DNA of 64,000 bases from Candidatus Omnitrophota bacterium. Its GTDB lineage: Bacteria > Omnitrophota > Gorgyraeia > Pluralincolimonadales > Pluralincolimonadaceae. The stretch covers positions 96,670 through 160,669 of the forward strand of contig JAQUPL010000002.1 in assembly GCA_028716565.1 (NCBI GenBank). Reading direction: 5' to 3'. The translations under genes were made by a program, and so were the position numbers. The notes beneath the pieces were generated by a model. That model was not told where the DNA came from. It did no database searches and worked only from the letters and a program-made list of their open reading frames with translations. Shown in pieces: positions 4,279-30,266 of the stretch (positions within the stretch are counted from its first letter, which is position 1; every line of letters starts with the position of its first letter).

Positions 4279-4303
4279 TGGTATAAGTAACGAAAAGCTT
4301 CAA

Positions 4304-4405: not shown

Positions 4406-4819
4406 ATGATGCTGCATATATGCAAGAGAAAGGGTTTCACCCTTATCGAGTTGTTGGTAGTCATGGCAATCATACTTATCCTCGCGGGTTTACTTACACC
4501 TGGCCTATTTAAAGCCAAGACACAAGCCGGTAAGGTAAGCTGCGCCAATAACTTGAAACAGGTAGGTACGGCGCTGGAATTGTACGCTGGCAAGTACAGC
4601 GGAACTTATCCTGCCACGCTGGGCGCATTATACACGGACAACGACATCGACGATACCAACGTATTAAATTGTCCGGTTGCCGGGACTTCGTATACCGCCT
4701 ATACTCAGCCGGCAAGCACAATGGCGTCAAATTCCATTATTTTATCGTGCACTAATGCCGTTCACGGCACAGGATCTCAAATAAGCCTCTATAGGGGTGG
4801 ATACGTAAAGATAAAATAG
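4406..4819 (+). CDS. type IV pilin / pseudopilin, copy 2 (tandem paralogue)
   Basis: Same KRKGFTLIELLVVMAIILILAGLL prepilin leader. About 90% identical to copy 1 at the protein level, with nucleotide stretches of over 120 nt identical. GGAGAAGGGGGGTG RBS. Confidence 0.8.
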   Translation: MMLHICKRKGFTLIELLVVMAIILILAGLLTPGLFKAKTQAGKVSCANNLKQVGTALELYAGKYSGTYPATLGALYTDNDIDDTNVLNCPVAGTSYTAYTQPASTMASNSIILSCTNAVHGTGSQISLYRGGYVKIK

Positions 4820-4891: not shown

Positions 4892-4967
4892 GGCGACGTA
4901 CCCAAGTGGCTAAGGGAGCGGTCTGCAAAACCGCGATCCACCGGTTCGATTCCGGTCGTCGCCTCCA
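4892..4967 (+). tRNA. tRNA-Cys (GCA)
   Basis: Cloverleaf with acceptor stem GGCGACG/CGTCGCC, anticodon loop CUGCAAA, T-arm GGTTCGATTCC and an encoded CCA. Confidence 0.9.
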
Positions 4968-4992
4968 GATTTATCTATCATAAGCGCCAAAC

Positions 4993-5079
4993 GCCGGGAT
5001 GGCGGAATTGGCAGACGCACGGGACTTAAAATCCCGCGACCGTAAGGTTATGAGGGTTCGACCCCCTCTCCCGGCACCA
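4993..5079 (+). tRNA. tRNA-Leu (UAA), type II with long variable arm
   Basis: Acceptor stem GCCGGGA/TCCCGGC, anticodon loop CUUAAAA, long variable arm, T-arm GGTTCGACCCC and an encoded CCA. Confidence 0.9.
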
Positions 5080-5183: not shown

Positions 5184-5212
5184 GGAGCCGGAAGTTAGGC
5201 TCCTTTTTGTTT
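5184..5212 (+). terminator. rho-independent terminator after the tRNA pair
   Basis: Stem GGAGCC / GGCTCC with an 8-nt loop, followed by TTTTTGTTT. Confidence 0.7.
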
Positions 5213-5227
5213 GCTAAAGACCGGAAA

Positions 5228-7255
5228 ATGGAAAAGAAAAAAGCAGTCATAATAGAAAACAATCCGACGATAGCGCAGGATATCTCCGATATCTTTTCGG
5301 AGAAGGGCTATCTTCCCTTACTGGCGACCAACGGACTGGACGGCATTGAGCTAGTCTGCGAGGAGTCGCCTGACCTCGTCATGCTTAATCCATGCATCAC
5401 AGACATAAACGGCAGTTCCGTATATAAACTTCTCAGGGACGACCCCAAAAACGGCCATATCCCCATCCTGATCTGCGTCACCAACGAAAGGGATATGTTC
5501 AGGTTCTGCGGCATGAAATCTCAGCCCGAACAGAACGCGATCAGGTTTACGGCAAAATCCGATTTTAAAGATAACCTGGAAAAATCCCTCAATCTTATAG
5601 AGAACCGCGTCCTGTCGAATAAATTCCAGCTCGACAGCGAACATTTCAAGAGAGTCCTGGTAAAGCTTGTGAGCGCTTACCAGTCGTATAACGGTTTATC
5701 GTCGGAAGAGGTCAAGGGCATCCTTAACGAAGTCCTCGATAAGATAACGACGATGCTGAGTTCCGAACTCGGGTCGTTGATGCTCGTAGACGAACCCGCG
5801 CAGGAACTTGTGATCAAGGCCTCCAAGGGATTAAGCGACGACGTAATAAATAAGACCCGCATAAAGGTGGGCAAGGGGATCTCCGGTTGGGTGGCGAAGG
5901 CGGGGAGCCCGTTGCTGATAAGGAACATCGAGACCGACGAGCGTTTCTCCCGCCAGAATTCCAAGAGATATTATACATCGTCCTTATTGAGCGCGCCCAT
6001 CCGGATAAAGAACAGGATCGTAGGCGTGATCAACGTAAACAATAAATCCACGAGGGAGCCTTTTACGGAATATGACCTTGCGCTCCTGACGATCCTCACA
6101 AATGAGATGTCGATAGCGATCGAATCCTCGCATTGGCAGAAAGAGCTCGAAGAGGCCAACGAGAAAATAGAAAAACTCAAAGTCAGCAAGCAGATCCTGG
6201 GAGATATCGCCCGTTCGCTCGATGACGAATTATATGAGTTGACAATCTCGCAGGAAGTTAGTAATATAATATACTCGAGGCTCGATTATAAGGAGATAAT
6301 AGACGCGATTTTGGAGATAATCGAGCGCTCCATCGATTGTCATCTATGCGGCTTATTGTTTGTGGATGAGGAAAAAAAGACGGGAATAATAGTCGAGGTA
6401 AAATACCCGGCTACCCAGCAGGAGATTGACAACTTTAAGCTGAAGATCATAGAAACGTTCAACAGGTTAACAGGGGGGAGACTGTTGCCGGAACAAGTTT
6501 CGGTTGATCAGGCTCGAGACAGCGGAAATTTAATAGACTCATACGCCGAAAACAGGAATATCCTCAGCTCTTTCCAGGCGCAATTACTTTTGGCCGGCGA
6601 GAAGCCTATCGGCATGCTGGCAGTCGCCAATTCATTCCCGAACGCCTTCAGCGGCGAAGACCTGAGAGTCTTCTCGATCATATCCCGCCATTCAAGCATC
6701 GCGATAAACAATACCATGCTCCACAAGAAGATAACCGAGCTTTCGATAACAGACGGCCTTACCGGCCTTTATGTCTACAGGTATTTTAACGACGCGCTCG
6801 ACAAGGAAATACTGCGATCGGCCAGGTACAGGCAGCCATTCGGCCTCATAATGATCGACCTGGACAGCTTCAAGAAGATAAACGACAGCTACGGCCATCC
6901 CCAGGGCGACGAGGTATTAAAAGAAGTCGCCCAAATATTCAAGAAAATATGCCGCGAGGTGGATATCGTGGCGAGGTACGGCGGAGAGGAATTCGCGATA
7001 ATACTTCCGGAAACGGACCTGGAGGGCGCGTTTGTCCTGGCCGACAGGATAAGGATGGTCATAAAGAATTACGCTTTCGGGACAAAAGAGAACGTAATAA
7101 ACCTGACGGCGAGCATCGGGGCCGCGAGCTATCCCGATATAGCGGTCTCGAAAACGGAACTCATAAAGCACGTCGACAGGGCGTTATACAGGGCCAAGGC
7201 CGAAGGCAGGAACAAGACATGCCGCGCCGTAAAGGAGATCACGAATGAGATTTAG
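5228..7255 (+). CDS. diguanylate cyclase (GGDEF) with N-terminal degenerate receiver-like domain and GAF domains
   Basis: C-terminal GGDEF core (RYGGEEFAIILPETD, DGLTGLYVYRYFN) and a middle GAF-like region. The N-terminal REC-like fold has lost its acidic pocket and phospho-Asp (ENNP; LVMLNPCITDING). ATG 5228 (MEKKKAVII) preferred over the TTG at 5207. Confidence 0.8.
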   Translation: MEKKKAVIIENNPTIAQDISDIFSEKGYLPLLATNGLDGIELVCEESPDLVMLNPCITDINGSSVYKLLRDDPKNGHIPILICVTNERDMFRFCGMKSQPEQNAIRFTAKSDFKDNLEKSLNLIENRVLSNKFQLDSEHFKRVLVKLVSAYQSYNGLSSEEVKGILNEVLDKITTMLSSELGSLMLVDEPAQELVIKASKGLSDDVINKTRIKVGKGISGWVAKAGSPLLIRNIETDERFSRQNSKRYYTSSLLSAPIRIKNRIVGVINVNNKSTREPFTEYDLALLTILTNEMSIAIESSHWQKELEEANEKIEKLKVSKQILGDIARSLDDELYELTISQEVSNIIYSRLDYKEIIDAILEIIERSIDCHLCGLLFVDEEKKTGIIVEVKYPATQQEIDNFKLKIIETFNRLTGGRLLPEQVSVDQARDSGNLIDSYAENRNILSSFQAQLLLAGEKPIGMLAVANSFPNAFSGEDLRVFSIISRHSSIAINNTMLHKKITELSITDGLTGLYVYRYFNDALDKEILRSARYRQPFGLIMIDLDSFKKINDSYGHPQGDEVLKEVAQIFKKICREVDIVARYGGEEFAIILPETDLEGAFVLADRIRMVIKNYAFGTKENVINLTASIGAASYPDIAVSKTELIKHVDRALYRAKAEGRNKTCRAVKEITNEI

Positions 7256-8876
7256 CAGGCAACTTTTGTTTTGCAGCTTCGTCACGGTTTTCCTTTTGGT
7301 GTTTGCCCATCTCACCTGCGCCCAAGACGACAAAACGGTCACCCTCGACGTGCAGAACATGAATATCGACGCGGTCGTCAAGATGATAGCCGACCAGAGC
7401 GGAATGAACGTAGCCCTGAGCAATAATGTCATCGGCACGGTTACCGTAAAACTTGACAGCGTAAGCGTGATCCAGGCCCTCGACTCGGTCCTGAAGGCGA
7501 ACAATTACCTATATTCCATCGAAAACGGGATAATATCCGTCTACACATACCAGGACTCGGAACAACAGGAGCGTTTCGTTAATCTCGAAACAAGGGTATT
7601 TACTCTTGGCTACACGGATGTCGCCGACCTGAAAAAAGTCCTCCTTTCGATGAAGACAGCCCGCGGCAGGATAGAGACGAACGAGAAGAACAACCAGGTA
7701 ATAGTGACCGATACCCCGGAAAAGGTAAAAGAGATCGAGATCGCGCTTAAGGAACTCGACCAGCCTACCGAGACGAAAGAATATAAGCTGTTGTATTCCA
7801 AGGCCAAGGATGTCGAGCCGAAGATACTCCAGGTGATACCCAAAGAGAAGGGTGACGTATACATCGACGAGAGGACTAACAGTATAACCGTCAGGGCGAC
7901 GCCGGTCATACTGAAAAATATAGATAATTTTATCGGGGGCTGGGATTCCCAGCATAAGCAGGTGCTCATAGAGTCGATGATATTAGAAGTCACCCTCGAT
8001 GAAGGGACGAAGCTTGGCATACAATGGCAGCAGTTGAGCCAATTACCGGTCGATTCCAGCGGTAAAGCCGCCCATCACCCCGCGCTTATCAATACGGCCG
8101 CGATGTTCGCTTCCGGGCTCCCGGCAGCGGGCCCGGCCGGTTTCTTTAAGATCGGAAGCCTTACGGCCGACGAATATAACATCGCTATAGACGCCCTCAA
8201 GAGCAACGCGAATACCGAGGTCCTTTCGAGCCCGAGGATCGTGGTCATAGATAACGAGAAAGCGAATATACTTATCGGGAGCAGCGAGCCGTACGCGGTG
8301 GCGACGACTGACCCGATAACCCACCTGCTCGTCCAGGATATAAAATATGTCGATGTCGGCGTAAAATTGGAAGTTACGCCGCAGATCGGCGAGGATAATT
8401 ATGTCACGATGAAGATACATCCAGAGGTCAGCACCGCGAGAAGGGTGCCTGAGGTCGACAACGTCGTGGCCAAAGATACCACCCAGGCCGATACAGTAAT
8501 GATGGTCAGGGACGGCGAGACGATAGTCCTGGGCGGGCTCATTAAGAACCAGAAAAAGCTGACAGTAAATAAGATCCCGATATTGGGGGATCTGCCCCTG
8601 TTCGGCCTGCTCTTCAGGAACAAGAATTACCAGGACCAGAAGAGGGAGGTGATAGTCTTTGTCACGCCCCATATCCTGACGAATAATAACCGCCAGACGC
8701 TTTCAAGGCAGCAATACCAAAACACCATCAACAGGACAAAAAGAGACGACGCTATCGTAACCGATGCCATAGAAAAGTCCGGTGGGGTACTGATGACCCC
8801 CGTAGAGAAAGAAAAGAAGAGCGAGGCGATAAGAAAAGATATCCAGAGATTGTTAGACGGCGGCGATGAGTATTAA
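7245..8876 (+). CDS. secretin (GspD/PilQ family outer-membrane channel)
   Basis: Signal peptide, N-terminal NolW-like repeats and a C-terminal secretin domain (VLGGLIKNQKK...IPILGDLPLFGLLFRNKNYQDQKREVIVFVTPHIL). Confidence 0.85.
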   Translation: MRFSRQLLFCSFVTVFLLVFAHLTCAQDDKTVTLDVQNMNIDAVVKMIADQSGMNVALSNNVIGTVTVKLDSVSVIQALDSVLKANNYLYSIENGIISVYTYQDSEQQERFVNLETRVFTLGYTDVADLKKVLLSMKTARGRIETNEKNNQVIVTDTPEKVKEIEIALKELDQPTETKEYKLLYSKAKDVEPKILQVIPKEKGDVYIDERTNSITVRATPVILKNIDNFIGGWDSQHKQVLIESMILEVTLDEGTKLGIQWQQLSQLPVDSSGKAAHHPALINTAAMFASGLPAAGPAGFFKIGSLTADEYNIAIDALKSNANTEVLSSPRIVVIDNEKANILIGSSEPYAVATTDPITHLLVQDIKYVDVGVKLEVTPQIGEDNYVTMKIHPEVSTARRVPEVDNVVAKDTTQADTVMMVRDGETIVLGGLIKNQKKLTVNKIPILGDLPLFGLLFRNKNYQDQKREVIVFVTPHILTNNNRQTLSRQQYQNTINRTKRDDAIVTDAIEKSGGVLMTPVEKEKKSEAIRKDIQRLLDGGDEY

Positions 8877-8879
8877 ACC

Positions 8880-10511
8880 ATGACCATGACAACGCATGAG
8901 GACCAAGGTTCGCTACGCGATTATCTACAGATAATCTTCCACCGCAGATGGTTTTTCATGATGCCCTTCGTCATCGTCTTCTTCACTGCCAGCATAGGCA
9001 GTTTTTTTCTGCCCAAATATTACCAATCGGCAGTTCTCGTGCTTGTCGAAGAAGAAAAACCGATTAATCCGCTCGCCACCAAGGAACCGACATATGTCTC
9101 AGTGACCGGACAACCTCCTACCCTTTCCGAACAACTTAAGACTTTAACGGAAAAACTCCTCAGCTATCCCCATCTTTTAGTATTAGTAAAAACACTCGGC
9201 CTTGATAAGGGCATTGCCGATCAAGCCTCCTATGAAAAACTTCTGATGGGGATCCGGAAACGGGCAGAAGTAAAAATGAGGTCTCCCGACGTTTTCCAGA
9301 TCTCATACGAAGACAAGAACCCCGTCGTCTCGAGGGACTCCGTAAGGACGCTGGTAAAGATCTTTATAGACGAGAATAAATCAAAAAAGACCGAGCAAGC
9401 CAAGGACGCCGTTAAATTCGCCGAACAGCATGCCCAGCTTTATAAGAAAAAACTCGAAGACTCGGAAAAAGCCCTTTTCGAGTTCCGGGCCCAGTATCCT
9501 ATGCAGCTGCCAGGGAAGGAGCTCGATTATAACGTCTCCATGCTCACCAATTACCAGACATCGCTTACGGCCATCCAGATGAGCATAAAAGAAGCCCAGA
9601 ATAAAATAGACCTGGTAAAGAGGCAATTGGCGGGCAGGGAGCCGGTCATAATAACGGCTGAGTCGATCGACCTCAATCCGGCGGTCAGCCGCCTTAATTC
9701 CAAGTTACAATCGTTGCAATCCCAGCAAGAGGAGCTTATAAAGACTACTCCTGATTCGCCTGACATCTCTTCTCTGCAGGTCGAGATGGAAGAGACGCGC
9801 GATCAGCTGCGGCTTGAGACCGAGAAACTGGTCGGCGGAGAGACCGCCCAGACCGCGCCTCTTTTTTACAAGAGGCTTGAGCAAAGACTCAGAGATGCCC
9901 AAAAAGAGGCGGATGAATTAAGGGTGCGGGAGAAGAACCTGCAGGGACTGGTCAGCGAATATGAAAAGAGGATCGAGACTCTGCCGGAACAGGACAGGAA
10001 ATTAGCCCTGCTTACGAGAGATACCGAAGTAAATGACAATATATATAAAATGCTGGTGCTAAAAGTGGAAGAAAATAAGCTCGCGACATCAGAGGCCGAG
10101 GAGAAAGGGACCAAATATACGATCCTCGACGATGCCAGGCTCCCCCTTAAGCCTTCCAAGCCGCAGATCTTGTTGATCGGGATAGTCGCTTTCATATTGG
10201 GCATCCTTTCCGGGTTTGGCTGCGTATTCATGGCCGAATTCGCGGACCATTCTTTTAGGGGAGTGGAGGACGCGAGGGCATTTTTAAAATTCGAGATATT
10301 AGGAGGCGTGGCGGCCATTGTCGACCGTAACGAGGTAATGGCCCGGAATGCGAGGCAGCGCGTGGTCGGGGTAACGGTGGTAATATTGTATATCGTGTTT
10401 TTTGCAGTCGCCGCGACATATTCAAATATGAGGCAGGAAGAGGTAAAGAATAAAGTCATTGAGATAGCCAACAAAGAAAAGACTGCCGAGGCGAAACAAT
10501 ATGGCAAATAA
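8880..10511 (+). CDS. polysaccharide chain-length determinant (Wzz/GumC-like, Wzc N-terminal half)
   Basis: N-terminal TM helix (FFMMPFVIVFFTASIGSFF), a long coiled-coil periplasmic region and a C-terminal TM helix. Followed by the BY-kinase gene. Confidence 0.7.
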   Translation: MTMTTHEDQGSLRDYLQIIFHRRWFFMMPFVIVFFTASIGSFFLPKYYQSAVLVLVEEEKPINPLATKEPTYVSVTGQPPTLSEQLKTLTEKLLSYPHLLVLVKTLGLDKGIADQASYEKLLMGIRKRAEVKMRSPDVFQISYEDKNPVVSRDSVRTLVKIFIDENKSKKTEQAKDAVKFAEQHAQLYKKKLEDSEKALFEFRAQYPMQLPGKELDYNVSMLTNYQTSLTAIQMSIKEAQNKIDLVKRQLAGREPVIITAESIDLNPAVSRLNSKLQSLQSQQEELIKTTPDSPDISSLQVEMEETRDQLRLETEKLVGGETAQTAPLFYKRLEQRLRDAQKEADELRVREKNLQGLVSEYEKRIETLPEQDRKLALLTRDTEVNDNIYKMLVLKVEENKLATSEAEEKGTKYTILDDARLPLKPSKPQILLIGIVAFILGILSGFGCVFMAEFADHSFRGVEDARAFLKFEILGGVAAIVDRNEVMARNARQRVVGVTVVILYIVFFAVAATYSNMRQEEVKNKVIEIANKEKTAEAKQYGK

Positions 10512-11370
10512 CGGCAACGGGTTCAAAAAATTAAGCGATGCGCTGAAAAAGGCGGCCGAAGAGAAAGACGAAGCTTTGCAGAAGGACAAAGTGCCGGTAA
10601 TTACCCCCCCGCCGGCGGCGCCGGAAACGGAGAAACAGGAAGCTCCTCAAGAGGCGCCTGTGTATCAGGCCGCAGAAAGACCAGAAAGCCAAATACGTTC
10701 AACAGGGATAAGCAAAAAGATAGTGGCATACCACAATCCTGCCAGCCATATAACAGAGCAATTCCGCGTTTTAAGGATGCATGCCTGTTCATCGGAGAAG
10801 GCCGGCAACGTAAAACTAATGGTTGTTACCAGTTCCGCTAATGGGGAAGGGAAATCGGTGGCTGCGGCGAATCTCGCGGTGGTCATGGCCCAGGATTTTG
10901 GCAGGCCGGTCCTGCTTATCGACTGCAATATGCGTAAACCTGCCATCGATTCGTTACTGGGGATAAGAAGTGAGAGGGGCCTGTCCGACGTCCTTTCGGG
11001 AAACCTGAAATTAGAAGACGCGTTGGTAAAGACAGATATAGCTAACCTGGTGGTCCTGCCCGCCGGGCAGACGCCCGCAAATCCGAACGAACTGCTGGCG
11101 TCCGACAGGATGAAGGCCATTCTTGCGGAAGTAAGGCCGCAGTTTGAGGTAATAGTCCTGGATACACCCGCGGTCATACCGTTCGCCGACCCGAGGATAT
11201 TGAGCAAAGTAGTCGATGGCGTTATAATAGTGGTAAGGGCGGGAAAGACACGCCGGGAAGTGGTAGCCCGAGCGGAAAGCATCCTGAAGAGTGTCGGCGC
11301 GAATATAATGGGGTATGTCCTGACAGGCGTAGAATACCATATTCCTGAGTATATTCACCGGCATCTGTAG
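10501..11370 (+). CDS. CpsD/CapB-type protein-tyrosine kinase (BY-kinase ATPase, Wzc C-terminal half)
   Basis: Walker A (SSANGEGKS), Walker B (VIVLDTPAV) and the BY-kinase context (LVVLPAGQTPANPNELL). Overlaps the Wzz-like gene. Confidence 0.85.
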   Translation: MANNGNGFKKLSDALKKAAEEKDEALQKDKVPVITPPPAAPETEKQEAPQEAPVYQAAERPESQIRSTGISKKIVAYHNPASHITEQFRVLRMHACSSEKAGNVKLMVVTSSANGEGKSVAAANLAVVMAQDFGRPVLLIDCNMRKPAIDSLLGIRSERGLSDVLSGNLKLEDALVKTDIANLVVLPAGQTPANPNELLASDRMKAILAEVRPQFEVIVLDTPAVIPFADPRILSKVVDGVIIVVRAGKTRREVVARAESILKSVGANIMGYVLTGVEYHIPEYIHRHL

Positions 11371-11455: not shown

Positions 11456-12169
11456 ATGTATGCTGGCGATGAATTAATAAAAGAATTTGTGCCGAATAAT
11501 GAATGTAAACAAATTTCCTCGACTTTTTTTCTCGATTTATTATTAAAAGATACGAAAATAGAAAAAATATTAGACCTAGGCTGCGGCAAAGGAGATTCTG
11601 TAGATTACTTCAGGAAGAAAGACCCTGAAATACAATGGGTCGGCCTTGACATTCAATCGTCTCCGGAAGTCGGGGCCAGGAAAAGGACAGACGCCGCATT
11701 TGTCACATTTAACGGAAGAGAAATCCCTTTTGCGGACGGATATTTTGATATTATATATTGCAATCAGGTATTAGAGCATGCAGAGAAACCGGAAGAGCTT
11801 ATCAATGAGGCGACAAGAGTATTAAAGAAAGGCGGTTTCTTGGTCGGTTCGACATCCCATCTGGAGCCGTTTCATTCCTTGAGTATGTATAATTTTACCC
11901 CTTACGGTTTCAGCCTCATGGTTAAGGCTCCTCTGAAATTAAAGGAGATAAGGCCGGGCATAGATGTGTTTACCCTCATATTCTCGCGAATATTCAAACG
12001 GGTACCACTTTTGTCTCAGCTGTTATCGAGCTATTTCGAAAATGAATCACCCTTCAATTTCATGATGACCGTAGCGGGGAAAATGACCGGCAGGTCAGAT
12101 CAGTATATTAACCTTGCGAAACTGTTATTTTGCGGTCACTTCAGGTTTTTAATACAAAAAGACGGATAA
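11456..12169 (+). CDS. class I SAM-dependent methyltransferase
   Basis: SAM motif I ILDLGCGKGDS and a post-motif region DIIYCNQVLEHAEKPEEL. Confidence 0.7.
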   Translation: MYAGDELIKEFVPNNECKQISSTFFLDLLLKDTKIEKILDLGCGKGDSVDYFRKKDPEIQWVGLDIQSSPEVGARKRTDAAFVTFNGREIPFADGYFDIIYCNQVLEHAEKPEELINEATRVLKKGGFLVGSTSHLEPFHSLSMYNFTPYGFSLMVKAPLKLKEIRPGIDVFTLIFSRIFKRVPLLSQLLSSYFENESPFNFMMTVAGKMTGRSDQYINLAKLLFCGHFRFLIQKDG

Positions 12170-13450
12170 ATGCTCAGTAAGTTTAATATTGACAAAAAAC
12201 GATTGATATCAAATTTCTTCAGCCTCTCATCGGTTGAAGCGGCGAATTATCTCTTCCCGCTTATAACATTGCCGTATCTGGTAAGAGTGCTCGGTCCGGA
12301 AAAATATGGTCTTATTAACTTTGCAGCAGCATTCATCTACTATTTTGTGCTCTTGACAGACTATGGCTTTAACCTCTCAGCTACGAGAGAGATCTCGATC
12401 AATAGGGAGGACAAACGAAAAGTATTGAGTATCTTTAATTCAGTCATGTTCGTGAAGTTTGTATTGATGGTCGTAAGTCTAATTATTATGCTGGCGATGG
12501 TGTTTTCTATACCAAAGTTCAGGCAGGATTGGCTTATTTATATAGGTACTTTTGGGATGGTTCTAGGCAACGTCCTTTTTCCCATATGGCTTTTTCAGGG
12601 GATGGAGAAGATGAAACTGGTGGCGCTTCTTAACCTGCTTGCGAAATTTATATTCGTTATAGCGATATTTATATTCGTGAGGAAGCAATCAGACTATATT
12701 TACGTGCCACTTATAACATCGTTAGGGTTTATGACGGCCGGTGTTATCAGTCTCGTAATAGCGGCAAGGCGTTTCGGTATAATCTTCCGTATGCCCGCAG
12801 GAAAAGACTGCACCTCTTCTCTAAAGGAAGGCTGGCACGTATTTATCTCGACCGTTTCTGTAAGTTTATATACGAGCAGTAACGCTTTTATACTGGGGCT
12901 CTTTACCAACAACACGATAGTCGGCTATTATAGTGCCTCCGAAAGGATAATAAGAAGCGGCCAACGCCTGATAAACCCCATATCGCAGACACTATACCCG
13001 CACATAAGCAAGCTTGTTGCGGATTCAAAAGAGAAAGCCGCATATTTTATAAAGAAAGTTATAGTGGTCTTTGGAGGAATCGGATTTGCCGCATCGATTC
13101 TATTGTTTGCCCTCGCGGCACCTATAGTGAATATAATTCTCGGAAACCAGTTTGAACAGTCAATAATAGTCCTGAAGATATTGGCGTTCCTGCCTTTTAT
13201 GGATGCGTTAAGTAATATTTTTGGTATTCAAACCATGCTGACTTTTAACATGAAGGAGGCCTTGTCGAGGATATATATTTCCGGCGGAATACTAAGCATT
13301 ATTCTTGCTCTGATCCTCGTGCCATTATGGAAGCACGTCGGTACGGCAATGGCAGCATTAATAACCGAGACATATATATCATTAGCAATGTTCGCCTTCA
13401 TTCACAAGAAGGGGATTTTATACGCCAAAAGACAGGTAAGGCAACATTAG
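12170..13450 (+). CDS. oligosaccharide flippase (Wzx / polysaccharide biosynthesis protein family)
   Basis: Multi-TM protein of about 420 aa (12 predicted TM segments), sitting between a methyltransferase and glycosyltransferase genes. Confidence 0.65.
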   Translation: MLSKFNIDKKRLISNFFSLSSVEAANYLFPLITLPYLVRVLGPEKYGLINFAAAFIYYFVLLTDYGFNLSATREISINREDKRKVLSIFNSVMFVKFVLMVVSLIIMLAMVFSIPKFRQDWLIYIGTFGMVLGNVLFPIWLFQGMEKMKLVALLNLLAKFIFVIAIFIFVRKQSDYIYVPLITSLGFMTAGVISLVIAARRFGIIFRMPAGKDCTSSLKEGWHVFISTVSVSLYTSSNAFILGLFTNNTIVGYYSASERIIRSGQRLINPISQTLYPHISKLVADSKEKAAYFIKKVIVVFGGIGFAASILLFALAAPIVNIILGNQFEQSIIVLKILAFLPFMDALSNIFGIQTMLTFNMKEALSRIYISGGILSIILALILVPLWKHVGTAMAALITETYISLAMFAFIHKKGILYAKRQVRQH

Positions 13451-13489: not shown

Positions 13490-14683
13490 ATGAACATCCT
13501 GATCTTGACGGCAGACTACTATGCACAGCTTGGCGGGAAATTTACGCATATCCTTATGTTGAAGAGCGGATTAGAAGAACTCGGGCATTCTGTAGACATA
13601 CTATTCCCTAAGAGAACCCCCCTCAATGCTTTAGTGATCAGCGGAGGCGGAAGGATACTGGATTTTTTCGGAATAGGTATTTACTACAGGCAAAATGCCA
13701 TAAAGGCAATGTTAAGATTTTCTCTCGGGAATTTTTTGTGCAGAAAACGGATAGATATTATTAACGCGGAAGACGTAATAGCGTTTTTTGCGATTAATAG
13801 ATCAAAAATTAAAGTTCCCGTGATCCTGACGATCCACGGCGAACTTGCGCAGGAGATGGAATCCGCCGGTCATATAAAATCAGCCTTCGAAAAAAAACTT
13901 TTCTTGAATATGGAGAAGAGATCGTATGAGCTCGCGGATTATACAGTTACCGTAGACACAAGGCTGAAAAACCATATTCAGGATTTAGCCCCTCTTGCTA
14001 AGTCCAAACTCCAGATAATCCAGAACTTTATTGATGTGGAATCCTTCAGGAATAGAATAGATTTGTTAAATATGGAAGAGATAAAGAAAAAAACAGGAAT
14101 TTCTTCCGACAAAAAGGTGATCCTCGTCCCAAGAAGGCTCGTACTGAAATGCGGGGTAATATATGCAATAAAAGCAGCTGAGCTCATTAGAAATAAATTC
14201 AATAGATGCGACCTGGTGTTTTTGATAGTAGGAGTTGGGCCGGAGAGGAGTAATATCCTTAACTATATTAATGATAATAAGTTACAAGAGCTGGTATCCC
14301 TTATTGATGGTGCTGAATACGACAAAATGCCGGAATTCTATAAAATAGCTGAAGTAGTTTTAATCCCGTCTATTAACGTGAAAGGTTATATAGAAGCCAC
14401 ATCCCTGTCCGCTATAGAAGCTATGGCAGCGAATATTCCGGTGATCGCTTCCGATATAGGCGGCCTTGCGGAGATGATCAGTAACGGAGTTACGGGTATA
14501 CTGGTCCCTGAGAAATCAAGCGAAGATATCGCCAAAAATATCATAAAGATCCTGGATAATGAAGATTTAAGAAACGTTATTACCTCTGCAGCCTTTGATT
14601 ATGTATCAAAAAATCATTCGAACCGGGTTGCCGCGCAGAAATTCGCGCGAATATATACAAACGAGATAAAAAATAATGGATGA
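13490..14683 (+). CDS. glycosyltransferase family 4
   Basis: GT4 C-terminal motif EATSLSAIEAMAANIPVIASDIGGLAEMI...GILVP. Confidence 0.8.
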   Translation: MNILILTADYYAQLGGKFTHILMLKSGLEELGHSVDILFPKRTPLNALVISGGGRILDFFGIGIYYRQNAIKAMLRFSLGNFLCRKRIDIINAEDVIAFFAINRSKIKVPVILTIHGELAQEMESAGHIKSAFEKKLFLNMEKRSYELADYTVTVDTRLKNHIQDLAPLAKSKLQIIQNFIDVESFRNRIDLLNMEEIKKKTGISSDKKVILVPRRLVLKCGVIYAIKAAELIRNKFNRCDLVFLIVGVGPERSNILNYINDNKLQELVSLIDGAEYDKMPEFYKIAEVVLIPSINVKGYIEATSLSAIEAMAANIPVIASDIGGLAEMISNGVTGILVPEKSSEDIAKNIIKILDNEDLRNVITSAAFDYVSKNHSNRVAAQKFARIYTNEIKNNG

Positions 14684-16091
14684 GCTCAAGATCAAGAAAC
14701 CGCAAGAAATTTTGTCAGAAGAAAGGCCGCTGGTAGAGCTTCCGGCGCTATTAAAAATATTATTGGTGCTCGTATTTTTTTTATTGGGCATCAGTCTGTT
14801 AATTTTTCCAAGCTATATCGTGTTGGCGCTATTTTTTGGGGTCGTTACGGCCATAGGCATATTATTTAATCCATTCATAGGGGCAATTTTATTTGTCGCA
14901 GCCGCGTACCTACATCCAATACAGCTTATGCCTGAATTAAAATATTCTAATCTTACGACTGCATTCGGCTTTATAATATTTCTTGTATGGGCTTTTCATA
15001 TTTTGATATATAGAGATTTCAAGGTTCCAAAGAGCAGGCAAATACCATATTTTATCGGCTTCGCGATTATTGCGACTGTCTCCTCCGCATTGCGCTGGGA
15101 AGAGAGTTCATTCTATTACGTAGACTTGCTCAAGGTATTTATATTGTATTTCTTGATCTCGAATTTAACAAAAACAAAAAAGCAAATTTCTATCATAGTA
15201 ATTGTTATGCTGATATTGGGATTTCTGGGAAGCATTTTAGCAGTATATCAGTATACCCATGGGTTAGGGTTGAAGATGTCGGGCGGCATCCTTAGGGTCA
15301 CGGGCTTCTCGGATAATCCCAATGATTTCGGCCTAAGCTTGTTATTGCTTATTTCGTTTAGCGTAGGGCTAGTCATGAAAAGCGGAAAATCGGCGCTTAA
15401 AATTACAGGGGCGTTATTAGTATGCGCGTATTTGTTAGGCATATTGATAAGTTTTTCGAGGGCGGTTTATCTCGGGCTGCCCGTGGTCTTGATCGTAAGT
15501 GTATGGAAATTCATAAACAAGGGAAAAAGATTTCTTACCGTCATAATCACCCTTATGTTATTTACCGTGGTGTTATTATTTTTGCCGCAGCAGTTCTGGA
15601 ATAGGATCAATAGCATAGTTATGACGGGGGCAGATCCGAGCATCTGGTCAAGGTTGGACGGGGATATCGTTGGATTAAAAATGATGGCGGCAAATCCCGT
15701 AATCGGAGTAGGTATAGGGCGTTGGAAACAGGAATATTGGCCCATCGCATACGCATCGCCGTTAATAAGGACAAAGTCATCTACCGTTCCGCACAATCTT
15801 TTTATAGAAGCCGGCGCTGAAACTGGCATCACAGGCTTGATTTTGTTTAGTTTGCTGATATTCCTCGCCCTCAGAGAATCGCAGCAATCAATCCGCATAT
15901 TTGAAAAGTCAAAGAATACTCTCTTGAGCGTATATTCCCAGTCGGCAAGTATAAGCTTGGTCGGTTTTCTCATATCCTCGATGTTTATTTCAGCGCTTCA
16001 TGTCAAATTTGTATGGATTATATTAGGATTTATTATAGCCCTTAGGAATATCGCATCAAAAATAGAATCTGAGGATCAAGGGATAAAATGA
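14676..16091 (+). CDS. O-antigen ligase/polymerase-like membrane protein (Wzy_C family)
   Basis: About 10 TM helices with a large periplasmic loop, typical of Wzy/WaaL-type proteins, and a glycan-cassette context. Confidence 0.6.
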   Translation: MDELKIKKPQEILSEERPLVELPALLKILLVLVFFLLGISLLIFPSYIVLALFFGVVTAIGILFNPFIGAILFVAAAYLHPIQLMPELKYSNLTTAFGFIIFLVWAFHILIYRDFKVPKSRQIPYFIGFAIIATVSSALRWEESSFYYVDLLKVFILYFLISNLTKTKKQISIIVIVMLILGFLGSILAVYQYTHGLGLKMSGGILRVTGFSDNPNDFGLSLLLLISFSVGLVMKSGKSALKITGALLVCAYLLGILISFSRAVYLGLPVVLIVSVWKFINKGKRFLTVIITLMLFTVVLLFLPQQFWNRINSIVMTGADPSIWSRLDGDIVGLKMMAANPVIGVGIGRWKQEYWPIAYASPLIRTKSSTVPHNLFIEAGAETGITGLILFSLLIFLALRESQQSIRIFEKSKNTLLSVYSQSASISLVGFLISSMFISALHVKFVWIILGFIIALRNIASKIESEDQGIK

Positions 16092-18468: not shown

Positions 18469-20106
18469 ATGAGATTTTTTCTGGAAGTAATTATTTTGAT
18501 AAGCATGATCCCAACATCTTCGGCTTCCGGTCCGGTTTCAGTAACGCCCACTCCCCAAGAAATAGAGATGAAAGGAGGGGCAGCAGTCTTATCGAACGAT
18601 TGGAGCATTGTATTGGACCAGAAAGATTCCAAAAATGCACTTACTGCTAGATACTTGGCGGATAAAATTAATGACCGATTCGGCCTTATTCTTAATCTGG
18701 AAGATGTGGCCCATCCAAATAAAAAAAACCATATTGTGTTAAGTAAACTTTCCGGACAAGAGCATAATAACATAGGAGAAGAAGGTTATGTGTTGATAGC
18801 CTCAGATGGGAATATTTCCATATCGGCAAATACCCAGAAAGGTATATTCTATGGCATGCAAACGCTGTGCCAGTTGATTAAAAAAGAAGCAAACAATATA
18901 ACGGTGCCGTTGCTCAAAATCGTTGATTATCCCAAGATAAAGATCAGGGCAGTGCATTTTAGCGGAATAAAGCCCGATAAAATAAAGGAAGAAATAGAAA
19001 AAATCGCCCAGCTTAAATACAATACGGCGATAATAGAATCGCAAGCTTATTTTAGCCTTGGCCAAAGCGAAAACAGGGAATTAATGGAAGAAATATTCCG
19101 TTACGCCCGCGAACTCTATATTGAACCTATTCCCGAGGTGCTTAGCTTTAGTTCAGCGCAGGGAATATTGGTAGGCGATCCTTATTCAGTCGAAGGAATA
19201 CGTAACGAAAATAAAAAGCTTAAATTCATAAATGATATTGCCCAACCAGAAGAATCAACTGTTGGGCCTCTGGTCAATGTGATAAGAGACGGAGAAGACG
19301 AAATAATAGTCAGAAGCGCGGATGGGAAAAAAGTATTTTCCGAACACAAGGATTATAAAGTCATTGATGGGCAGATATCCTTTCCCTTCAGTTCGAGTGC
19401 CGTTCCCACGCAGATCATGAGGATCCAAGATGGCGAGATAGAAAATGGAGAAGAGGTCCTGGTTTCCTATACTTATTTTGAAAATAAACCCTCGTTTAAT
19501 TTTCCGGATTGCGTGGCCACCTATTGTCCTTCCACGGAAAGGACATATAATGTAATGACTGAAACGATAGGGAACGTGCTTAATATATTAAGGCCGTCAT
19601 ATATCAGCATCGGCCATGATGAAATAAGGGGAATGAATAGGGACAATCGTTGCAGAAAAAGAAATCTAAGCAACGCGGAATTGTTGGCGGACGATGTGAT
19701 TAAACTTTTTAATATATGTAAAAGCGTTAATCCGGATGTAAATGTATTAATGTGGAATGACATGCTTAATCCTTATTATAACGGCGGCAATGCTGATTTT
19801 GAAGTACAGTATGGAGGCCTGCCCGGAGAGACATATCCGGCCATAGATTGGATTCCTAAAGACGTTATCCTAATGACGGCGGCATACGATCCAAATAAAA
19901 GTTTCTGCCTGAAAAGTTGCGATTATTTTGACTCGAAGCAATTTAACTACCTTGTTGCCGGTTGGAACAATAAGCAGAACATTGCCGAGTGGTCTGAAAT
20001 AGCCAAACAAAGAAGCAATTGCCTCGGTATCATAGAGACCACCTGGTATGATTGGGAAGGTAATTTTGAGAATATAAAATATGCAGCCGAAGTTTCCTGG
20101 CACTAA
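18469..20106 (+). CDS. secreted glycoside hydrolase, GH20-like (beta-N-acetylhexosaminidase/dispersin-like fold), tentative
   Basis: Signal peptide. A TPTPQEIEMKGG N-domain pattern, DYPKIKIRAVHF...KYNTAIIE, and SIGHDEI resembling the GH20 H-x-G-G-D-E catalytic motif. Assigned from memory of family motifs only. Confidence 0.4.
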   Translation: MRFFLEVIILISMIPTSSASGPVSVTPTPQEIEMKGGAAVLSNDWSIVLDQKDSKNALTARYLADKINDRFGLILNLEDVAHPNKKNHIVLSKLSGQEHNNIGEEGYVLIASDGNISISANTQKGIFYGMQTLCQLIKKEANNITVPLLKIVDYPKIKIRAVHFSGIKPDKIKEEIEKIAQLKYNTAIIESQAYFSLGQSENRELMEEIFRYARELYIEPIPEVLSFSSAQGILVGDPYSVEGIRNENKKLKFINDIAQPEESTVGPLVNVIRDGEDEIIVRSADGKKVFSEHKDYKVIDGQISFPFSSSAVPTQIMRIQDGEIENGEEVLVSYTYFENKPSFNFPDCVATYCPSTERTYNVMTETIGNVLNILRPSYISIGHDEIRGMNRDNRCRKRNLSNAELLADDVIKLFNICKSVNPDVNVLMWNDMLNPYYNGGNADFEVQYGGLPGETYPAIDWIPKDVILMTAAYDPNKSFCLKSCDYFDSKQFNYLVAGWNNKQNIAEWSEIAKQRSNCLGIIETTWYDWEGNFENIKYAAEVSWH

Positions 20107-23490: not shown

Positions 23491-24321
23491 ATGGAATGTT
23501 CTTTAGCGATAAAAGGAATTGCCAGCACAAGGATCCTGCAGGAGCTTCAGGGCGCGTTCCTGAAGTTTACGGGCATGGAATTCTCTTTCGTGGACCTGAA
23601 GGGGAAGCCCGTGATAATCTCGCAGTATGCCGGGCATTCCTGTAAAGCCCTCCTCTCGTCGAAGAAAAAAGATTCCGCGTTCCCGGACGTCGTAACTAAA
23701 TCGTGCAATTCCCTCTCCGGCTCGAAGAAACCCGTTATTTCCGAATATAATAAAACACCGCTGGCGTTCGTCCCTATAATAATAGAGGGGAACGCGATAG
23801 GCGCGGTCTTGATGTGCCCCGGCGGCAGCCAGGCCGCCAATGCCGGGATATCGAAGGAGCAATTCAAAAGCGCGGCCGAGCTTTTATTCATTTTTGTAAA
23901 TTATGTGTTTAAGCATGAATTCGACTTCCTGGTCGTTTCCGATACAGACAAGCAGTATTCGCGCAACCAGGAAGCGGTCCTTAAAGCTGTAGCGTTCATA
24001 AAGAAAAACTACCACGACAAGGACATATCCCTCCAGAAAGTAGCCGCGGAAGTCGCCCTGAGCCATTACTATTTCAGCCATATTTTCAAGGATGAGCTTA
24101 AGATCACTTTTATAGAATATTTGACGAAGGTCAGGATGGAAGCTTCGGCCAAGCTTTTGAAAAACCGCAACCTGAATGTTAACCAGATCGCGTATGCCGT
24201 TGGATACCAGGACCCGAATTATTTCAGTAAAGTTTTTAAAAGATACATGAAAACCTCCCCGATCGAATACAGGAACAATATGCTGAGAAAGGGGACAGAA
24301 AAACAAATAATTACGGCATAA
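23491..24321 (+). CDS. AraC-family transcriptional regulator with N-terminal PocR-like sensor domain
   Basis: C-terminal AraC HTH (LQKVAAEVALSHYYFSHIFK...IAYAVGYQDPNYFSKVFKRY). The N-terminal region resembles PocR. A promoter-like TTGACA sits upstream. Confidence 0.75.
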   Translation: MECSLAIKGIASTRILQELQGAFLKFTGMEFSFVDLKGKPVIISQYAGHSCKALLSSKKKDSAFPDVVTKSCNSLSGSKKPVISEYNKTPLAFVPIIIEGNAIGAVLMCPGGSQAANAGISKEQFKSAAELLFIFVNYVFKHEFDFLVVSDTDKQYSRNQEAVLKAVAFIKKNYHDKDISLQKVAAEVALSHYYFSHIFKDELKITFIEYLTKVRMEASAKLLKNRNLNVNQIAYAVGYQDPNYFSKVFKRYMKTSPIEYRNNMLRKGTEKQIITA

Positions 24322-24396: not shown

Positions 24397-24864
24397 ATGT
24401 CAGAACGCAGAAAGTATAAACGTGTCGACGTGAATGTTGCTATTAAGGGTAAGCTCATCGACCCCCAGAAAAAGGTCGATATTACCGGCGACATCCTGTT
24501 GAAGGCGAAAAATTTAAATGAAGGGGGCGCTTTGCTTGAATGGCCGCGCTCCTGGGATTGCGAATCCTGCTCTAATTGCCTCGGCTGGGTGCATAATTCC
24601 ACCTGCAAACTTAAGGAAGGCGGGCAAAGGGACAGCGAATTTAACAAGGATCTGGTCCCGGGGATGCATATCACTATACGTATAGTGCCGGGAAACGATA
24701 TAGAGCCGGTAAATGCTTTGGGTAAAGTAAGCTGGGTCAGGTCCGCAGGAAGCGAGAGGGCAGACAGCTATAATGTCGGGGTCTCTTTCGTTGAAGATGA
24801 AAAGCAGGAACCGGACATCAAAAAGAAGATCCTGGTCATAAAGAAAAGTTTCGAAACAACTTAG
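24397..24864 (+). CDS. PilZ domain protein (putative c-di-GMP receptor) with Cys-rich insertion
   Basis: RRKYKR followed by NLNEGGA fits the PilZ RxxxR...(D/N)xSxxG motifs. Also carries CESCSNC...C. Confidence 0.55.
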   Translation: MSERRKYKRVDVNVAIKGKLIDPQKKVDITGDILLKAKNLNEGGALLEWPRSWDCESCSNCLGWVHNSTCKLKEGGQRDSEFNKDLVPGMHITIRIVPGNDIEPVNALGKVSWVRSAGSERADSYNVGVSFVEDEKQEPDIKKKILVIKKSFETT

Positions 24865-30189: not shown

Positions 30190-30266
30190 GGGCTTATAGC
30201 TCAGTTGGTTAGAGCGCTTCCTTGACATGGAAGAGGTCAGAGGTTCGAGTCCTCTTAGGCCCACCA
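30190..30266 (+). tRNA. tRNA-Val (GAC)
   Basis: Acceptor stem GGGCTTA/TAGGCCC, D-arm GCTCAGTTGGTTAGAGC, anticodon loop CUUGACAU, T-arm GGTTCGAGTCC and an encoded CCA. Confidence 0.9.

Follow-up and report, generated by a model that had tools for sequence, protein, structure and literature searches.

Export of Wzx/Wzy-dependent polysaccharides across the outer membrane is thought to need an OPX protein, sometimes with a β-barrel partner. Secretins are known from textbooks as channels for proteins, pili or phages; judged by solved structures, their bore would be much wider than that of a Wza-type channel. The architecture of the T2SS secretin GspD is N0–N3. In the Wza/OPX–Wzc module (wza-wzb-wzc of E. 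coli; XrtA), the gene for the outer-membrane component, a Poly_export/SLBB protein, is followed by genes for a polysaccharide co-polymerase (PCP) and a BY-kinase (BYK) and then by variable Wzx, Wzy and glycosyltransferase (GT) genes. The gene order is OPX–ChnLen–TyrKin in the XrtA locus of Vibrio alfacsensis (L089), OPX–PCP–BYK in L094, exosortase–EpsI–OPX–PCP–BYK in L098, and OPX–PCP–AAA ATPase(–BYK) in the Omnitrophota loci L095 and L135.

Secretins have also been implicated in the export of a non-protein exopolymer. Zuckerman, So & Hoiczyk (2025) described secretin 'slime nozzles', PilQ in filamentous cyanobacteria and GspD in Myxococcus xanthus; the need of secretins for 'slime' secretion is argued from biochemistry and depletion, and they prefer a route for the polymer straight through the secretin, while the feeding of the nozzle by a polysaccharide machine is left unexplained (PMC12475490). 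T2SS dependence is moreover established for C-terminally tagged proteins with sortase-like processing, namely GlyGly-CTERM and MYXO-CTERM proteins (PMC11980579, PMC12475490). In these display systems (GlyGly-CTERM/rhombosortase, MYXO-CTERM/myxosortase), the secretin system, the sortase-like enzyme and the tagged substrates lie in one neighbourhood.

Here we describe a 64-kb stretch of DNA from Candidatus Omnitrophota, hereafter the window, in which a secretin gene stands at the operon position of the OPX gene. No earlier description of such an arrangement was found in the literature.

The secretin and its gene cluster

The secretin gene (7245..8876, + strand) encodes 543 residues from an ATG start, has an AAGGAG ribosome-binding site 7 nt 5′ of the start codon, and begins 11 nt before the GGDEF gene on its 5′ side has ended. 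The protein comprises a signal peptide, an N0 domain (residues 31–101), two ring-building domains (115–171 and 176–233), the secretin domain (239–478) and C-terminal helices (483–541). It belongs to the secretin superfamily (PF00263), with Pfam matches to Secretin (1.8e-45; 155 bits, cutoff 27.5), Secretin_N in two stretches (1.4e-22; 80.1 bits, cutoff 28.2), STN (4.7e-10; 39.5 bits, cutoff 28.4) and GspD N0 (5.9e-6). Among proteins of solved structure, ExeD, PilQ and GspD come closest in sequence (6e-39 to 1e-30), and its AF2 model (pLDDT 71.9) has the secretin fold, with a Foldseek probability of 1.0 against PulD (6hcg), GspD (5zdh) and ExeD (6i1x); global TM-scores are low (~0.3) because the domain orientation in the monomer model is arbitrary. 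The initial annotation had called this gene a GspD/PilQ-type secretin, and domains, solved relatives and fold all agree with that call.

The protein falls short of the curated models for either subfamily, scoring 277.9 with the GspD equivalog TIGR02517 (cutoff 351.35) and 263 with the PilQ model TIGR02515 (cutoff 284.35). With GspD, PulD and ExeD, its best sequence and fold matches, it shares N0, ring domains, secretin domain and a C-terminal helical tail, but it has one ring domain fewer than the N0–N3 layout. There is no GspE, GspF or PilP/GspC-like ORF in the window, and in contrast to T2SS loci, the locus lacks GspC/E/F/G–K genes and offers a PCP as the partner gene. Pfam detects no AMIN domain, and upstream there is no pilMNOP but a GGDEF response regulator; the true PilQ of L097, for contrast, comes with AMIN domains and PilO. 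The secretin itself likewise gives no Poly_export or SLBB match: the gene stands in the place of OPX, yet by its sequence does not encode one. The protein retains a conserved N0 domain and the same gate motifs as paralogues that secrete proteins or pili, and no striking class-specific signature was found, so that the sequence alone gives no pointer to a polysaccharide substrate.

The secretin, PCP and BYK genes head a cluster of about 25 kb that holds a complete Wzx/Wzy and exosortase set and has tRNA genes at both edges; all genes named here lie on the + strand. The upstream edge is marked by tRNA-Cys and tRNA-Leu (4892..5079; ARAGORN), which are followed by a response-regulator–GAF–GGDEF diguanylate cyclase (5207..7255; Pfam GGDEF 1.2e-46, GAF_2 2.3e-29, Response_reg 4.9e-8). 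Of 40 related loci, 22 carry a gene of this kind at −1. Only 3 nt separate the secretin from the PCP gene (8880..10511), an XrtA-type chain-length determinant (TIGR03007, 285.6 bits against a cutoff of 278.85) with transmembrane helices near residues 22–45 and 428–450 and a long periplasmic coiled-coil domain. The BY-kinase, with the motifs GEGKS (Walker A) and a C-terminal YHIPEY, is encoded by a separate gene that overlaps the PCP stop (10501..11370; TIGR01007, 158.6 bits, cutoff 108). That a secretin lies directly 5′ of Wzz-like and BY-kinase genes, as first annotated, is thereby borne out.

Downstream follow a SAM-dependent methyltransferase (11456..12169; Pfam Methyltransf_11 1.7e-19), a Wzx flippase (12170..13450; Pfam Polysacc_synt 2e-65), a GT4 glycosyltransferase (13490..14683; Pfam Glycos_transf_1 1.6e-36), a Wzy/O-antigen-ligase-like polymerase (14676..16091; TIGR03097 1e-26; its counterpart at the same position in L001 matches PF04932, Wzy_C), two further GT4 enzymes (16088–17233 and 17190–18455; TIGR03088 8.8e-54, TIGR04063 7.2e-29), a GH20-like protein (18469..20106; Pfam Glyco_hydro_20b 2.6e-22), the UDP-GlcNAc 2-epimerase WecB (20122–21258; TIGR00236 9.5e-153), a GT2 enzyme (21262–22401; TIGR03937 8.7e-25) and a WecA/MraY-family priming transferase (22405–23442; TIGR02380 1.2e-35). 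Priming transferase, flippase, polymerase, PCP and BYK of a Wzx/Wzy-dependent pathway are thus all present in one cluster. An AraC-family regulator (23491..24321; NCBIfam AraC-family matches) precedes a small PilZ-like protein with RKYKR and NLNEGG motifs (24397..24864; Pfam PilZ 2.7e-4, under the cutoff), which by its sequence is probably a c-di-GMP receptor. Next come a hydrophobic, polytopic inner-membrane protein with no Pfam or NCBIfam match (24865..25737) and a TPR lipoprotein with the lipobox LNGC (25740..26588; only TPR, YbgF and BamD-like matches), which might, speculatively, be a secretin pilotin or assembly factor. The cluster closes with an exosortase (26590–27429; PF09721 5.5e-56; TIGR02602 148.8 bits, cutoff 105.55), EpsI (27405–28055; TIGR02914 4.6e-27), two PEP-CTERM proteins (28258–28935 and 28997–30097, the second with a GH26-like region; PF07589 1.3e-6 and 1.9e-4) and, at the downstream edge, tRNA-Val (30190..30266; ARAGORN). 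The exosortase scores 167.7 with the exosortase A model TIGR03109 (cutoff 208) and the BY-kinase 183.2 with the XrtA kinase model TIGR03018 (cutoff 230.65); profile matches class the system as XrtA-like rather than as a canonical XrtA/PEP-CTERM EPS system (Haft 2006).

Gene for gene, the order matches that of the Vibrio XrtA locus except for the first gene. Where the latter has a short OPX directly 5′ of ChnLen, the window has the secretin, a large gated β-barrel that forms 12- to 15-mers in solved homologues; the window also lacks an AAA_22 ATPase and homologues of the 476-aa and 443-aa proteins encoded 3′ of the Vibrio kinase. The claim that the 25-kb locus holds no Wza homologue stands up throughout the window: a profile scan of ORFs of ≥100 aa (a non-nested, + strand set tiling the 64 kb) gave no Poly_export or SLBB match, and a 7-sequence OPX HMM found nothing at E ≤ 10 among six-frame ORFs of ≥50 aa. 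This HMM, with which the genuine Omnitrophota-type OPX proteins of L094 and L095 score 1e-35 and 1e-32, detected no OPX in the window and 86 other Omnitrophota-type loci (~1.3 Mb). Other Omnitrophota commonly carry OPX genes, and one elsewhere in the genome of the window, or in those of its relatives, could act in trans.

Pilins had been described as scattered through the window. Two small prepilin-type genes (N_methyl and DUF1559-like; 3805–4278 and 4361–4819; Pfam, NCBIfam) and a 403-aa N_methyl protein (51286–52497) do exist, but the small pair is set off from the secretin operon by the tRNA-Cys and tRNA-Leu genes, so that its membership of the system is uncertain.

Recurrence and phylogeny of the secretin–PCP pair

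We classified 86 secretin-bearing loci, comprising the window, 5 loci from a protein look-up and 80 from a genome scan. A PCP gene lies directly 3′ of the secretin in 42 of them, at a median distance of 3 nt from stop to start (≤14 nt in 37 of the 42). The same adjacency occurs on further metagenome contigs, giving more than 50 contigs in all from many studies and samples. Among the 40 non-redundant loci of this type, which we call class A, the gene at +1 is a PCP by profile label in every case and joins the PCP sequence cluster in 38. BYK is found at +2 or +3 in 31 of 40 by cluster and is present in 32 by label, and several of the BYK-less loci stop within or just past the PCP gene. The genes farther downstream (Wzx, Wzy, GTs) and those upstream differ among class A loci. 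A constant secretin–PCP–BYK block with changing flanks is what one expects where an export module is conserved and the glycan region after it varies. An exosortase is within reach in only 1 of the 40. Class A spans Omnitrophota across deep divergence and includes at least one contig labelled Auribacterota.

The PCP-BYK-linked secretins of the 40 loci form one clade (NJ bootstrap 98/100), within which identity falls to 41%, and the secretin-linked PCPs form another (100/100). In a single distance tree, the closest neighbours of these PCPs are OPX-linked PCPs, those of L094, L098 and the Omnitrophota loci L095 and L135, in which a short OPX fills the slot of the secretin, although the joining node has a bootstrap of only 46/100. 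At this operon position, a locus has either an OPX or a secretin gene, never both. The shared slot and the two clades support the view, first put forward for the window only, that the secretin stands where a Wzc-type locus would have its Wza-type exporter.

Other secretins, often from the same assemblies, keep PilO/PilP or a full T2SS-like operon, and the window secretin is 41–49% identical to the PilO/PilP-linked paralogues. Of the class B loci, 24 of 25 carry PilP, as do all 15 of class C; by contrast, the 40 class A loci (609 kb) contain no PilO, PilP, GspE or GspF and no GspC-like ORF. In class C, which is not sister to class A, a secretin–GspE–GspF operon of Omnitrophota directly precedes exosortase–EpsI (6 of 15) or PEP-CTERM genes. 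Thirteen assemblies carry, besides a PCP-linked secretin, another one from the pilus-type clade, which in 10 has its own PilO and/or PilP directly upstream and in the remaining 3 lies at a contig start and is placed by phylogeny only. In these relatives, the notion that the PCP-linked gene is a displaced pilus component fails.

Function of the PCP-linked secretin

The adjacency comes from MAG and metagenome data on uncultured organisms, where an assembly artefact or chance event in one MAG might be suspected. Recurrence of the order on over 50 independent contigs, which come from numerous studies and samples, and the co-phylogeny of both partners rule this out for all practical purposes. A more serious rival is that the secretin exports proteins, either exosortase-processed PEP-CTERM proteins or matrix enzymes such as the GH20-like and GH26-like ones, with pseudopilins, ATPase and platform encoded elsewhere; the polysaccharide would then leave by an OPX elsewhere or another route, and the linkage to PCP–BYK would reflect co-regulation of matrix protein and glycan. 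Because an exosortase is fused to T2SS-like operons in other Omnitrophota, and the window cluster itself ends in an exosortase, EpsI and two PEP-CTERM proteins, export of protein has to be taken seriously. The class C loci resemble the GlyGly-CTERM and MYXO-CTERM display systems, whose T2SS dependence is known (PMC11980579, PMC12475490), in coupling T2SS genes to an exosortase, and OPX genes occur widely across the phylum. Against this reading, which we consider unlikely though deserving of attention, the T2SS-linked paralogues always keep partners such as GspE, GspF, PilO and PilP, which class A loci lack throughout, and class A is not sister to the exosortase-linked class C. Its invariant partner is a PCP–BYK pair at 3 nt, whereas the exosortase, near in a single class A locus, sits 18 kb off at the far end of the cluster in the window; moreover, OPX and secretin exclude each other at one operon position.

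Less probable still, to our mind distinctly so, is that the protein is the secretin of a type IV pilus or pseudopilus, works with the pilin-like genes nearby and is merely co-transcribed with EPS genes in a c-di-GMP-controlled adhesion programme. Such a role would account for the prepilin-type genes at 3805–4819, with counterparts no more than five genes 5′ of the secretin in 14 of the 40 class A loci, for the diguanylate cyclase directly 5′ of the secretin, and for the close paralogy to PilO/PilP-linked secretins. However, two tRNA genes separate the pilin genes from the operon, most class A loci have no pilin genes, and 13 class A assemblies have a further, pilus-type secretin, 10 of these with their own PilO and/or PilP. 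The protein also lacks AMIN domains and stays under the curated PilQ cutoff, and the PCP linkage is invariant over ~40% sequence divergence, while co-regulation alone rarely keeps a 3-nt spacing. Among the polysaccharide, PEP-CTERM protein and pilus roles that the initial annotation had offered, synteny favours only the first.

We therefore lean towards the view that a lineage-specific secretin paralogue was recruited as the outer-membrane conduit of a Wzx/Wzy exopolysaccharide pathway, in a non-orthologous displacement of OPX. The WecA-like primer and the GT4 and GT2 enzymes would build repeat units on undecaprenyl phosphate, Wzx would flip them and the Wzy-like protein polymerise them, with the PCP/BY-kinase pair controlling polymerisation and passing the polymer across the periplasm. 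There, the periplasmic crown of the PCP oligomer may dock on the N0/N1 rings of the multimeric secretin, replacing the PilP/GspC-type partners of paralogous secretins, and the gated barrel would act as the outer-membrane conduit. Both this physical contact and the passage of polysaccharide through the secretin are inferred. Output is probably under c-di-GMP control, since a diguanylate cyclase heads the operon and a PilZ-like protein is encoded in the cluster.

A bolder and rather doubtful possibility is that secretin, PCP and BYK together make up a novel kind of polysaccharide exporter spanning the envelope, its secretin gate engaged and opened by a PCP oligomer instead of by a pseudopilus or pilus. 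The wide bore would pass bulky cargo, possibly EPS with exosortase-attached PEP-CTERM proteins, that is, matrix glycoconjugates assembled in the periplasm.

Significance for secretins and Omnitrophota

The slime nozzles are the ordinary T4P/T2SS secretins of their organisms, and have neither a genetic link to a polysaccharide machine nor a known inner-membrane partner. The dedicated paralogue described here is instead operon-fused to PCP–BYK, which names a candidate for such a partner; were the PCP-gated exporter real, it would supply the piece missing from cyanobacterial and myxobacterial slime secretion. The class A clade provides independent, purely genomic evidence linking secretins to exopolymer export, and the presence of a secretin in the OPX slot of more than 50 contigs suggests that slime polysaccharide is exported through it. 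It also names a concrete, testable pair of partners, with the N-domains on the side of the secretin and the periplasmic crown on that of the PCP. If confirmed, the arrangement would be the fourth kind of outer-membrane translocon for polysaccharides and widen the substrate range of secretins, and it may bear on the matrix or attachment material of these tiny, probably host-attached bacteria.

The secretin gene and its cluster

The secretin gene (7245-8876, + strand) is an intact ORF of 543 codons with an ATG start, a ribosome-binding site (AAGGAG) lies 7 nt 5' of this ATG, and the first 11 nt of the ORF overlap the end of the preceding gene. Pfam assigns the product to Secretin (1.8e-45), Secretin_N (two stretches), and STN/N0, and detects no AMIN domains; the solved structures closest to it by sequence are ExeD, PilQ, and GspD. 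In an AlphaFold2 model (mean pLDDT 71.9), a signal peptide is followed by an N0 domain (residues 31-101), two ring-building domains (115-171 and 176-233), the secretin domain (239-478, with a disordered loop at 254-300), and C-terminal helices. Foldseek groups the model with PulD, GspD, and ExeD at a probability of 1.0. The protein scores below the curated NCBIfam cutoffs for GspD (277.9 versus 351.35) and PilQ (263 versus 284.35), and a profile search of that collection assigns it to no narrower curated family. A protein of identical sequence is recorded for a Candidatus Omnitrophica MAG.

The cluster is a complete Wzx/Wzy pathway combined with an exosortase module, bordered by tRNA-Cys/tRNA-Leu (4892-5079) and tRNA-Val (30190-30266), and all genes between 5207 and 30097 lie on the + strand. 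A response-regulator–GAF–GGDEF cyclase (5207-7255) precedes the secretin, which is followed by an XrtA-type chain-length determinant or polysaccharide co-polymerase (PCP, 8880-10511) exceeding the curated TIGR03007 cutoff, and by a separate BY-kinase (10501-11370). The glycan genes encode a methyltransferase (11456-12169), Wzx (12170-13450), a GT4 enzyme (13490-14683), a Wzy-like polymerase (14676-16091), two further GT4 enzymes (16088-18455), a GH20-like protein (18469-20106), WecB (20122-21258), a GT2 enzyme (21262-22401), and a WecA-like primer (22405-23442). An AraC regulator (23491-24321), a PilZ-like protein with an RxxxR motif (24397-24864), a 290-residue polytopic membrane orphan (24865-25737), and a TPR lipoprotein with the lipobox LNGC (25740-26588) lead up to the exosortase (26590-27429), EpsI (27405-28055), and two PEP-CTERM proteins (28258-30097). 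The secretin is the sole outer-membrane component of the cluster. GC content is 40-44% across the Wzx/GT/Wzy part (12000-22000), whereas the export module and the flanks are at about 50%, a pattern typical of an exchangeable, serotype-like glycan region.

Two products of the cluster were examined more closely. The orphan at 24865-25737 was rejected as a hidden outer-membrane β-barrel, its sequence being that of a polytopic helical membrane protein. The TPR lipoprotein, encoded directly upstream of the exosortase, gave only designed-TPR and weak BamD/CpoB matches when tested as a PilF/PilW-type pilotin, and its similarities are generic (TPR, YbgF, BamD); it could be a pilotin for the secretin or a TPR partner of the exosortase system.

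Several features lie outside the cluster. CoaC (2659-3201) and CoaB (3123-3884, longest ORF) are encoded separately instead of as a fused CoaBC, and since the same split is found in the related locus L001, it is not a frameshift artefact. A 690-residue protein (49178-51250) fuses the catalytic and anticodon-binding regions of a class I Glu/Gln-type tRNA synthetase to a C-terminal TPR block. A gene at 51286-52497 encodes a 403-residue protein with a prepilin-type N-terminal methylation motif, unusually large for a pilin-like protein, and is followed by genes for a 198-residue protein with a weak PsbP-like match and a PMT_2 glycosyltransferase. The block at 54000-64000 is low in GC (33-41%, compared with near 50% averaged over the window) and probably represents an integrated mobile element. 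Its genes include a HigB-like toxin (55186-55524), an HTH + M78 peptidase (55525-56601), a tyrosine integrase (62788-63864), and several orphan ORFs; no tRNA gene was detected at its edge inside the window.

Secretin–PCP–BY-kinase operons in related genomes

Matches to the secretin are abundant and, where labelled by organism, almost all from Omnitrophota. Relatives at 69%, 55%, 50%, and 49% identity all display the order secretin–GNVR protein–ParA-like kinase–Wzx/Wzy/GTs, with unrelated genes upstream. When one genome per GTDB species was scanned, 80 loci were obtained; ORF calling and profile searches then distinguished three arrangements. Class A ([GGDEF]–secretin–PCP–BY-kinase–Wzx/Wzy) comprises 42 loci, 40 of them non-redundant; class B (PilO–PilP–secretin, then unrelated genes) comprises 25; and class C (PilMN-like–PilO–PilP–secretin–(PilP)–GspE–GspF, often followed by exosortase–EpsI) comprises 16.

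The secretin, PCP, and BY-kinase (positions 0, +1, and +2) form the invariant core of the 40 non-redundant class A loci, the later glycan genes vary, and a GGDEF regulator occupies position -1 in 22 of the 40. The secretin stop and the PCP start are separated by a median of 3 nt, and by at most 14 nt in 37 of the 42 loci. The initial annotation had placed the secretin immediately upstream of the PCP and BY-kinase genes and had pointed to synteny in related genomes as a check; the order is indeed kept throughout class A. No PilO, PilP, GspE, or GspF homologue occurs in the 40 non-redundant class A loci (609 kb), while 24 of 25 class B and 15 of 15 class C loci have PilP. In a distance tree, the class A secretins group together as one clade (98 of 100 bootstraps), within which identity falls to 41%; one member is labelled Candidatus Auribacterota, a further phylum of the PVC group. 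Class B secretins are followed by conserved genes lacking a family assignment, which in the class B locus L004 (11535-15194) stand alongside an M10 peptidase and a protein faintly resembling TraF_2; loci of this kind have no ATPase or platform gene nearby.

We searched for a Wza-like outer-membrane polysaccharide export protein (OPX) in several ways. No ORF of the 64-kb window has a Pfam match to Poly_export or SLBB. E. coli Wza had no match at E ≤ 10 among the six-frame ORFs of the window and of 86 related loci, while the positive control, E. coli Wzc, matched 66 ORFs. An HMM trained on seven OPX proteins of varied origin (E. coli Wza, Ralstonia EpsA, exopolysaccharide export proteins of the XrtA/PEP-CTERM system from Alteromonas and Vibrio plasmids, and three alphaproteobacterial sequences) likewise found nothing in this set, in which the Vibrio XrtA chain-length determinant and tyrosine kinase matched 40 and 36 ORFs, respectively. 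This negative result is meaningful because the HMM recovers OPX proteins found later in L095, an Omnitrophota MAG contig (1e-35), and L094, a metagenome contig (1e-32). The absence of a Wza homologue from the locus, claimed at the outset, therefore held in the Pfam, Wza, and HMM searches. It applies to 64 kb of the source genome, elsewhere in which an OPX acting in trans may be encoded. Short OPX proteins are common in Omnitrophota; as weak negative evidence, class A contigs, including ones of 684 and 708 kb, have no counterpart of the same length among the contigs of the 120 Omnitrophota OPX matches listed.

The position of the secretin corresponds to that of the OPX in other systems. A canonical XrtA locus on a Vibrio alfacsensis plasmid reads short OPX (216 residues)–ChnLen–TyrKin, and in the window the secretin takes the place of the short OPX. 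Close homologues of the window PCP are nearly all from Omnitrophota where labelled, and for more distant ones the gene directly upstream encodes a short Poly_export/SLBB protein, as in L094 (OPX–PCP–BY-kinase), L095 (OPX–PCP–AAA ATPase), and the related locus L098 (exosortase–EpsI–OPX–PCP–BY-kinase). The proposal that a secretin replaces a Wza-type exporter is thus borne out, the slot being the OPX slot of these three loci and of the Vibrio locus. In a metagenome scan seeded with distant PCPs (38 loci), the gene just upstream of the PCP, where on the contig, is a secretin or an OPX, never both, with L097 as the sole exception. In a PCP tree, all 51 secretin-linked PCPs, including one whose upstream gene falls off the contig, fall into one clade (100/100), the nearest neighbours of which are the OPX-linked PCPs of L098 and L094. 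The simplest explanation is that a duplicated secretin displaced the OPX once, as a non-orthologous substitute.

The exception, L097 (330-7165 on metagenome contig Ga0210016_1001542), has a true PilQ that bears two AMIN domains, lies downstream of PilO, and is separated from the PCP by two orphan genes (255 and 301 residues); no OPX is present. Its PCP groups in a distance tree with those of L098 and L094, the OPX-linked PCPs closest to the secretin-linked clade, and the arrangement may be an independent or intermediate juxtaposition.

The canonical Omnitrophota export module, MerR–short OPX–PCP (about 424 residues)–AAA_22 (ExeA/GspA-like) ATPase–BY-kinase, was seen in L135 (GCA_964629785.1, CAZVRU010000002.1; 6794-11119) and L095 (9023-11832). 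All secretin-linked modules, in contrast, lack the AAA ATPase. A class C genome carries MerR–OPX–PCP–AAA ATPase–BY-kinase on a 197-kb contig (197,074 bp), with its secretin in a T2SS-like operon about 40 kb away. Two solutions thus coexist in different lineages of one phylum, a PCP paired with an OPX and a PCP paired with a secretin.

Possible roles of the secretin

The class A operon is characterized by its component list, the order and spacing of its genes, their co-phylogeny, and its exclusivity with OPX and with PilO/PilP/GspE/F. Its recurrence on more than 50 contigs excludes chance juxtaposition or misassembly. The initial annotation had also considered that the secretin might serve a pilus system with its pilins scattered through the window, and had named a displaced pilus component as a refuting explanation. 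Pilin-like genes are indeed present, namely two small ones upstream and the large one at 51286-52497, but two tRNA genes cut the upstream pair off from the secretin operon, and the window holds no T2SS/T4P ATPase, platform, PilO, or PilP gene. In relatives, displacement was not borne out: 13 assemblies carry, besides a class A locus, a second secretin in the pilus-type class B clade (for example, JAHIOQ L034/L043, JBDRJV L033/L045, JACQZH L028/L046, JAAEQR L080/L047, DAOVKU L025/L049, and SDBU01 P0064/P0107). For ten of these second secretins, a PilO and/or PilP of their own is encoded immediately upstream; the remaining three, located at contig starts, were classified by phylogeny only. Together with the lack of AMIN domains, the tRNA boundary and the second secretins weaken the idea of a pilus secretin co-regulated with exopolysaccharide genes.

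The strongest rival is that the secretin exports PEP-CTERM proteins or matrix enzymes. GlyGly-CTERM and MYXO-CTERM proteins need a T2SS (PMC11980579), the window cluster holds exosortase and PEP-CTERM genes, and class C loci join a T2SS-like operon to an exosortase. However, all T2SS partners are missing from class A loci, class A is not the sister of class C, and the constant class A neighbour is the PCP–BY-kinase pair, not the exosortase. The class C operon itself (L006/L059, L063, L064, L066, L067, L075, and L077; in L006 at 7127-18781) reads PilMN-like–PilO–PilP–secretin–PilP–GspE–GspF and leads directly into exosortase and EpsI (6 of 15 loci) or into several consecutive PEP-CTERM genes. 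By analogy with the GlyGly-CTERM and MYXO-CTERM systems, this suggests that PEP-CTERM proteins of other Omnitrophota are exported by a dedicated T2SS-like machine.

The secretin sequence alone is of little help in choosing among these readings. Only one N0 site, K46R, shows type-II divergence between PCP-linked and other secretins, and a handful of N1 sites (T120, R131, L134, K160, and E163) are conserved in class A alone, evidence too weak for a remodelled N0 or a new interface. The N0 domain and the gate motifs are as strongly conserved in class A as in paralogues.

In the favoured reading, in which the secretin exports polysaccharide, a PCP oligomer would replace PilP/GspC as the periplasmic partner of its N-domains, and the Wzy-made polymer would exit via its barrel. 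Output is probably controlled by c-di-GMP, to which the GGDEF regulators at -1 and the RxxxR motif of the PilZ-like protein point. The exopolymer 'nozzles' have been identified as PilQ in filamentous cyanobacteria and as GspD in M. xanthus, and depleting GspD in M. xanthus lowered slime secretion; the authors, who had no link to a polysaccharide machine, favour a direct passage of the polymer (PMC12475490). This precedent makes polysaccharide passage through a secretin plausible.

The secretin machine and the PCP–BY-kinase machine are both well known; their combination is new. Literature searches on secretins with exosortase, Omnitrophota, Wzc, or chain-length determinant returned no description of such an operon, and no curated NCBIfam model covers its secretin. 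Class A secretins, whose hosts are largely uncultured, are proposed to function in polysaccharide export. Whether polysaccharide leaves cells through secretins, and by what mechanism, is a question raised recently, and the class A operons give an independent genomic approach to it that can be tested.
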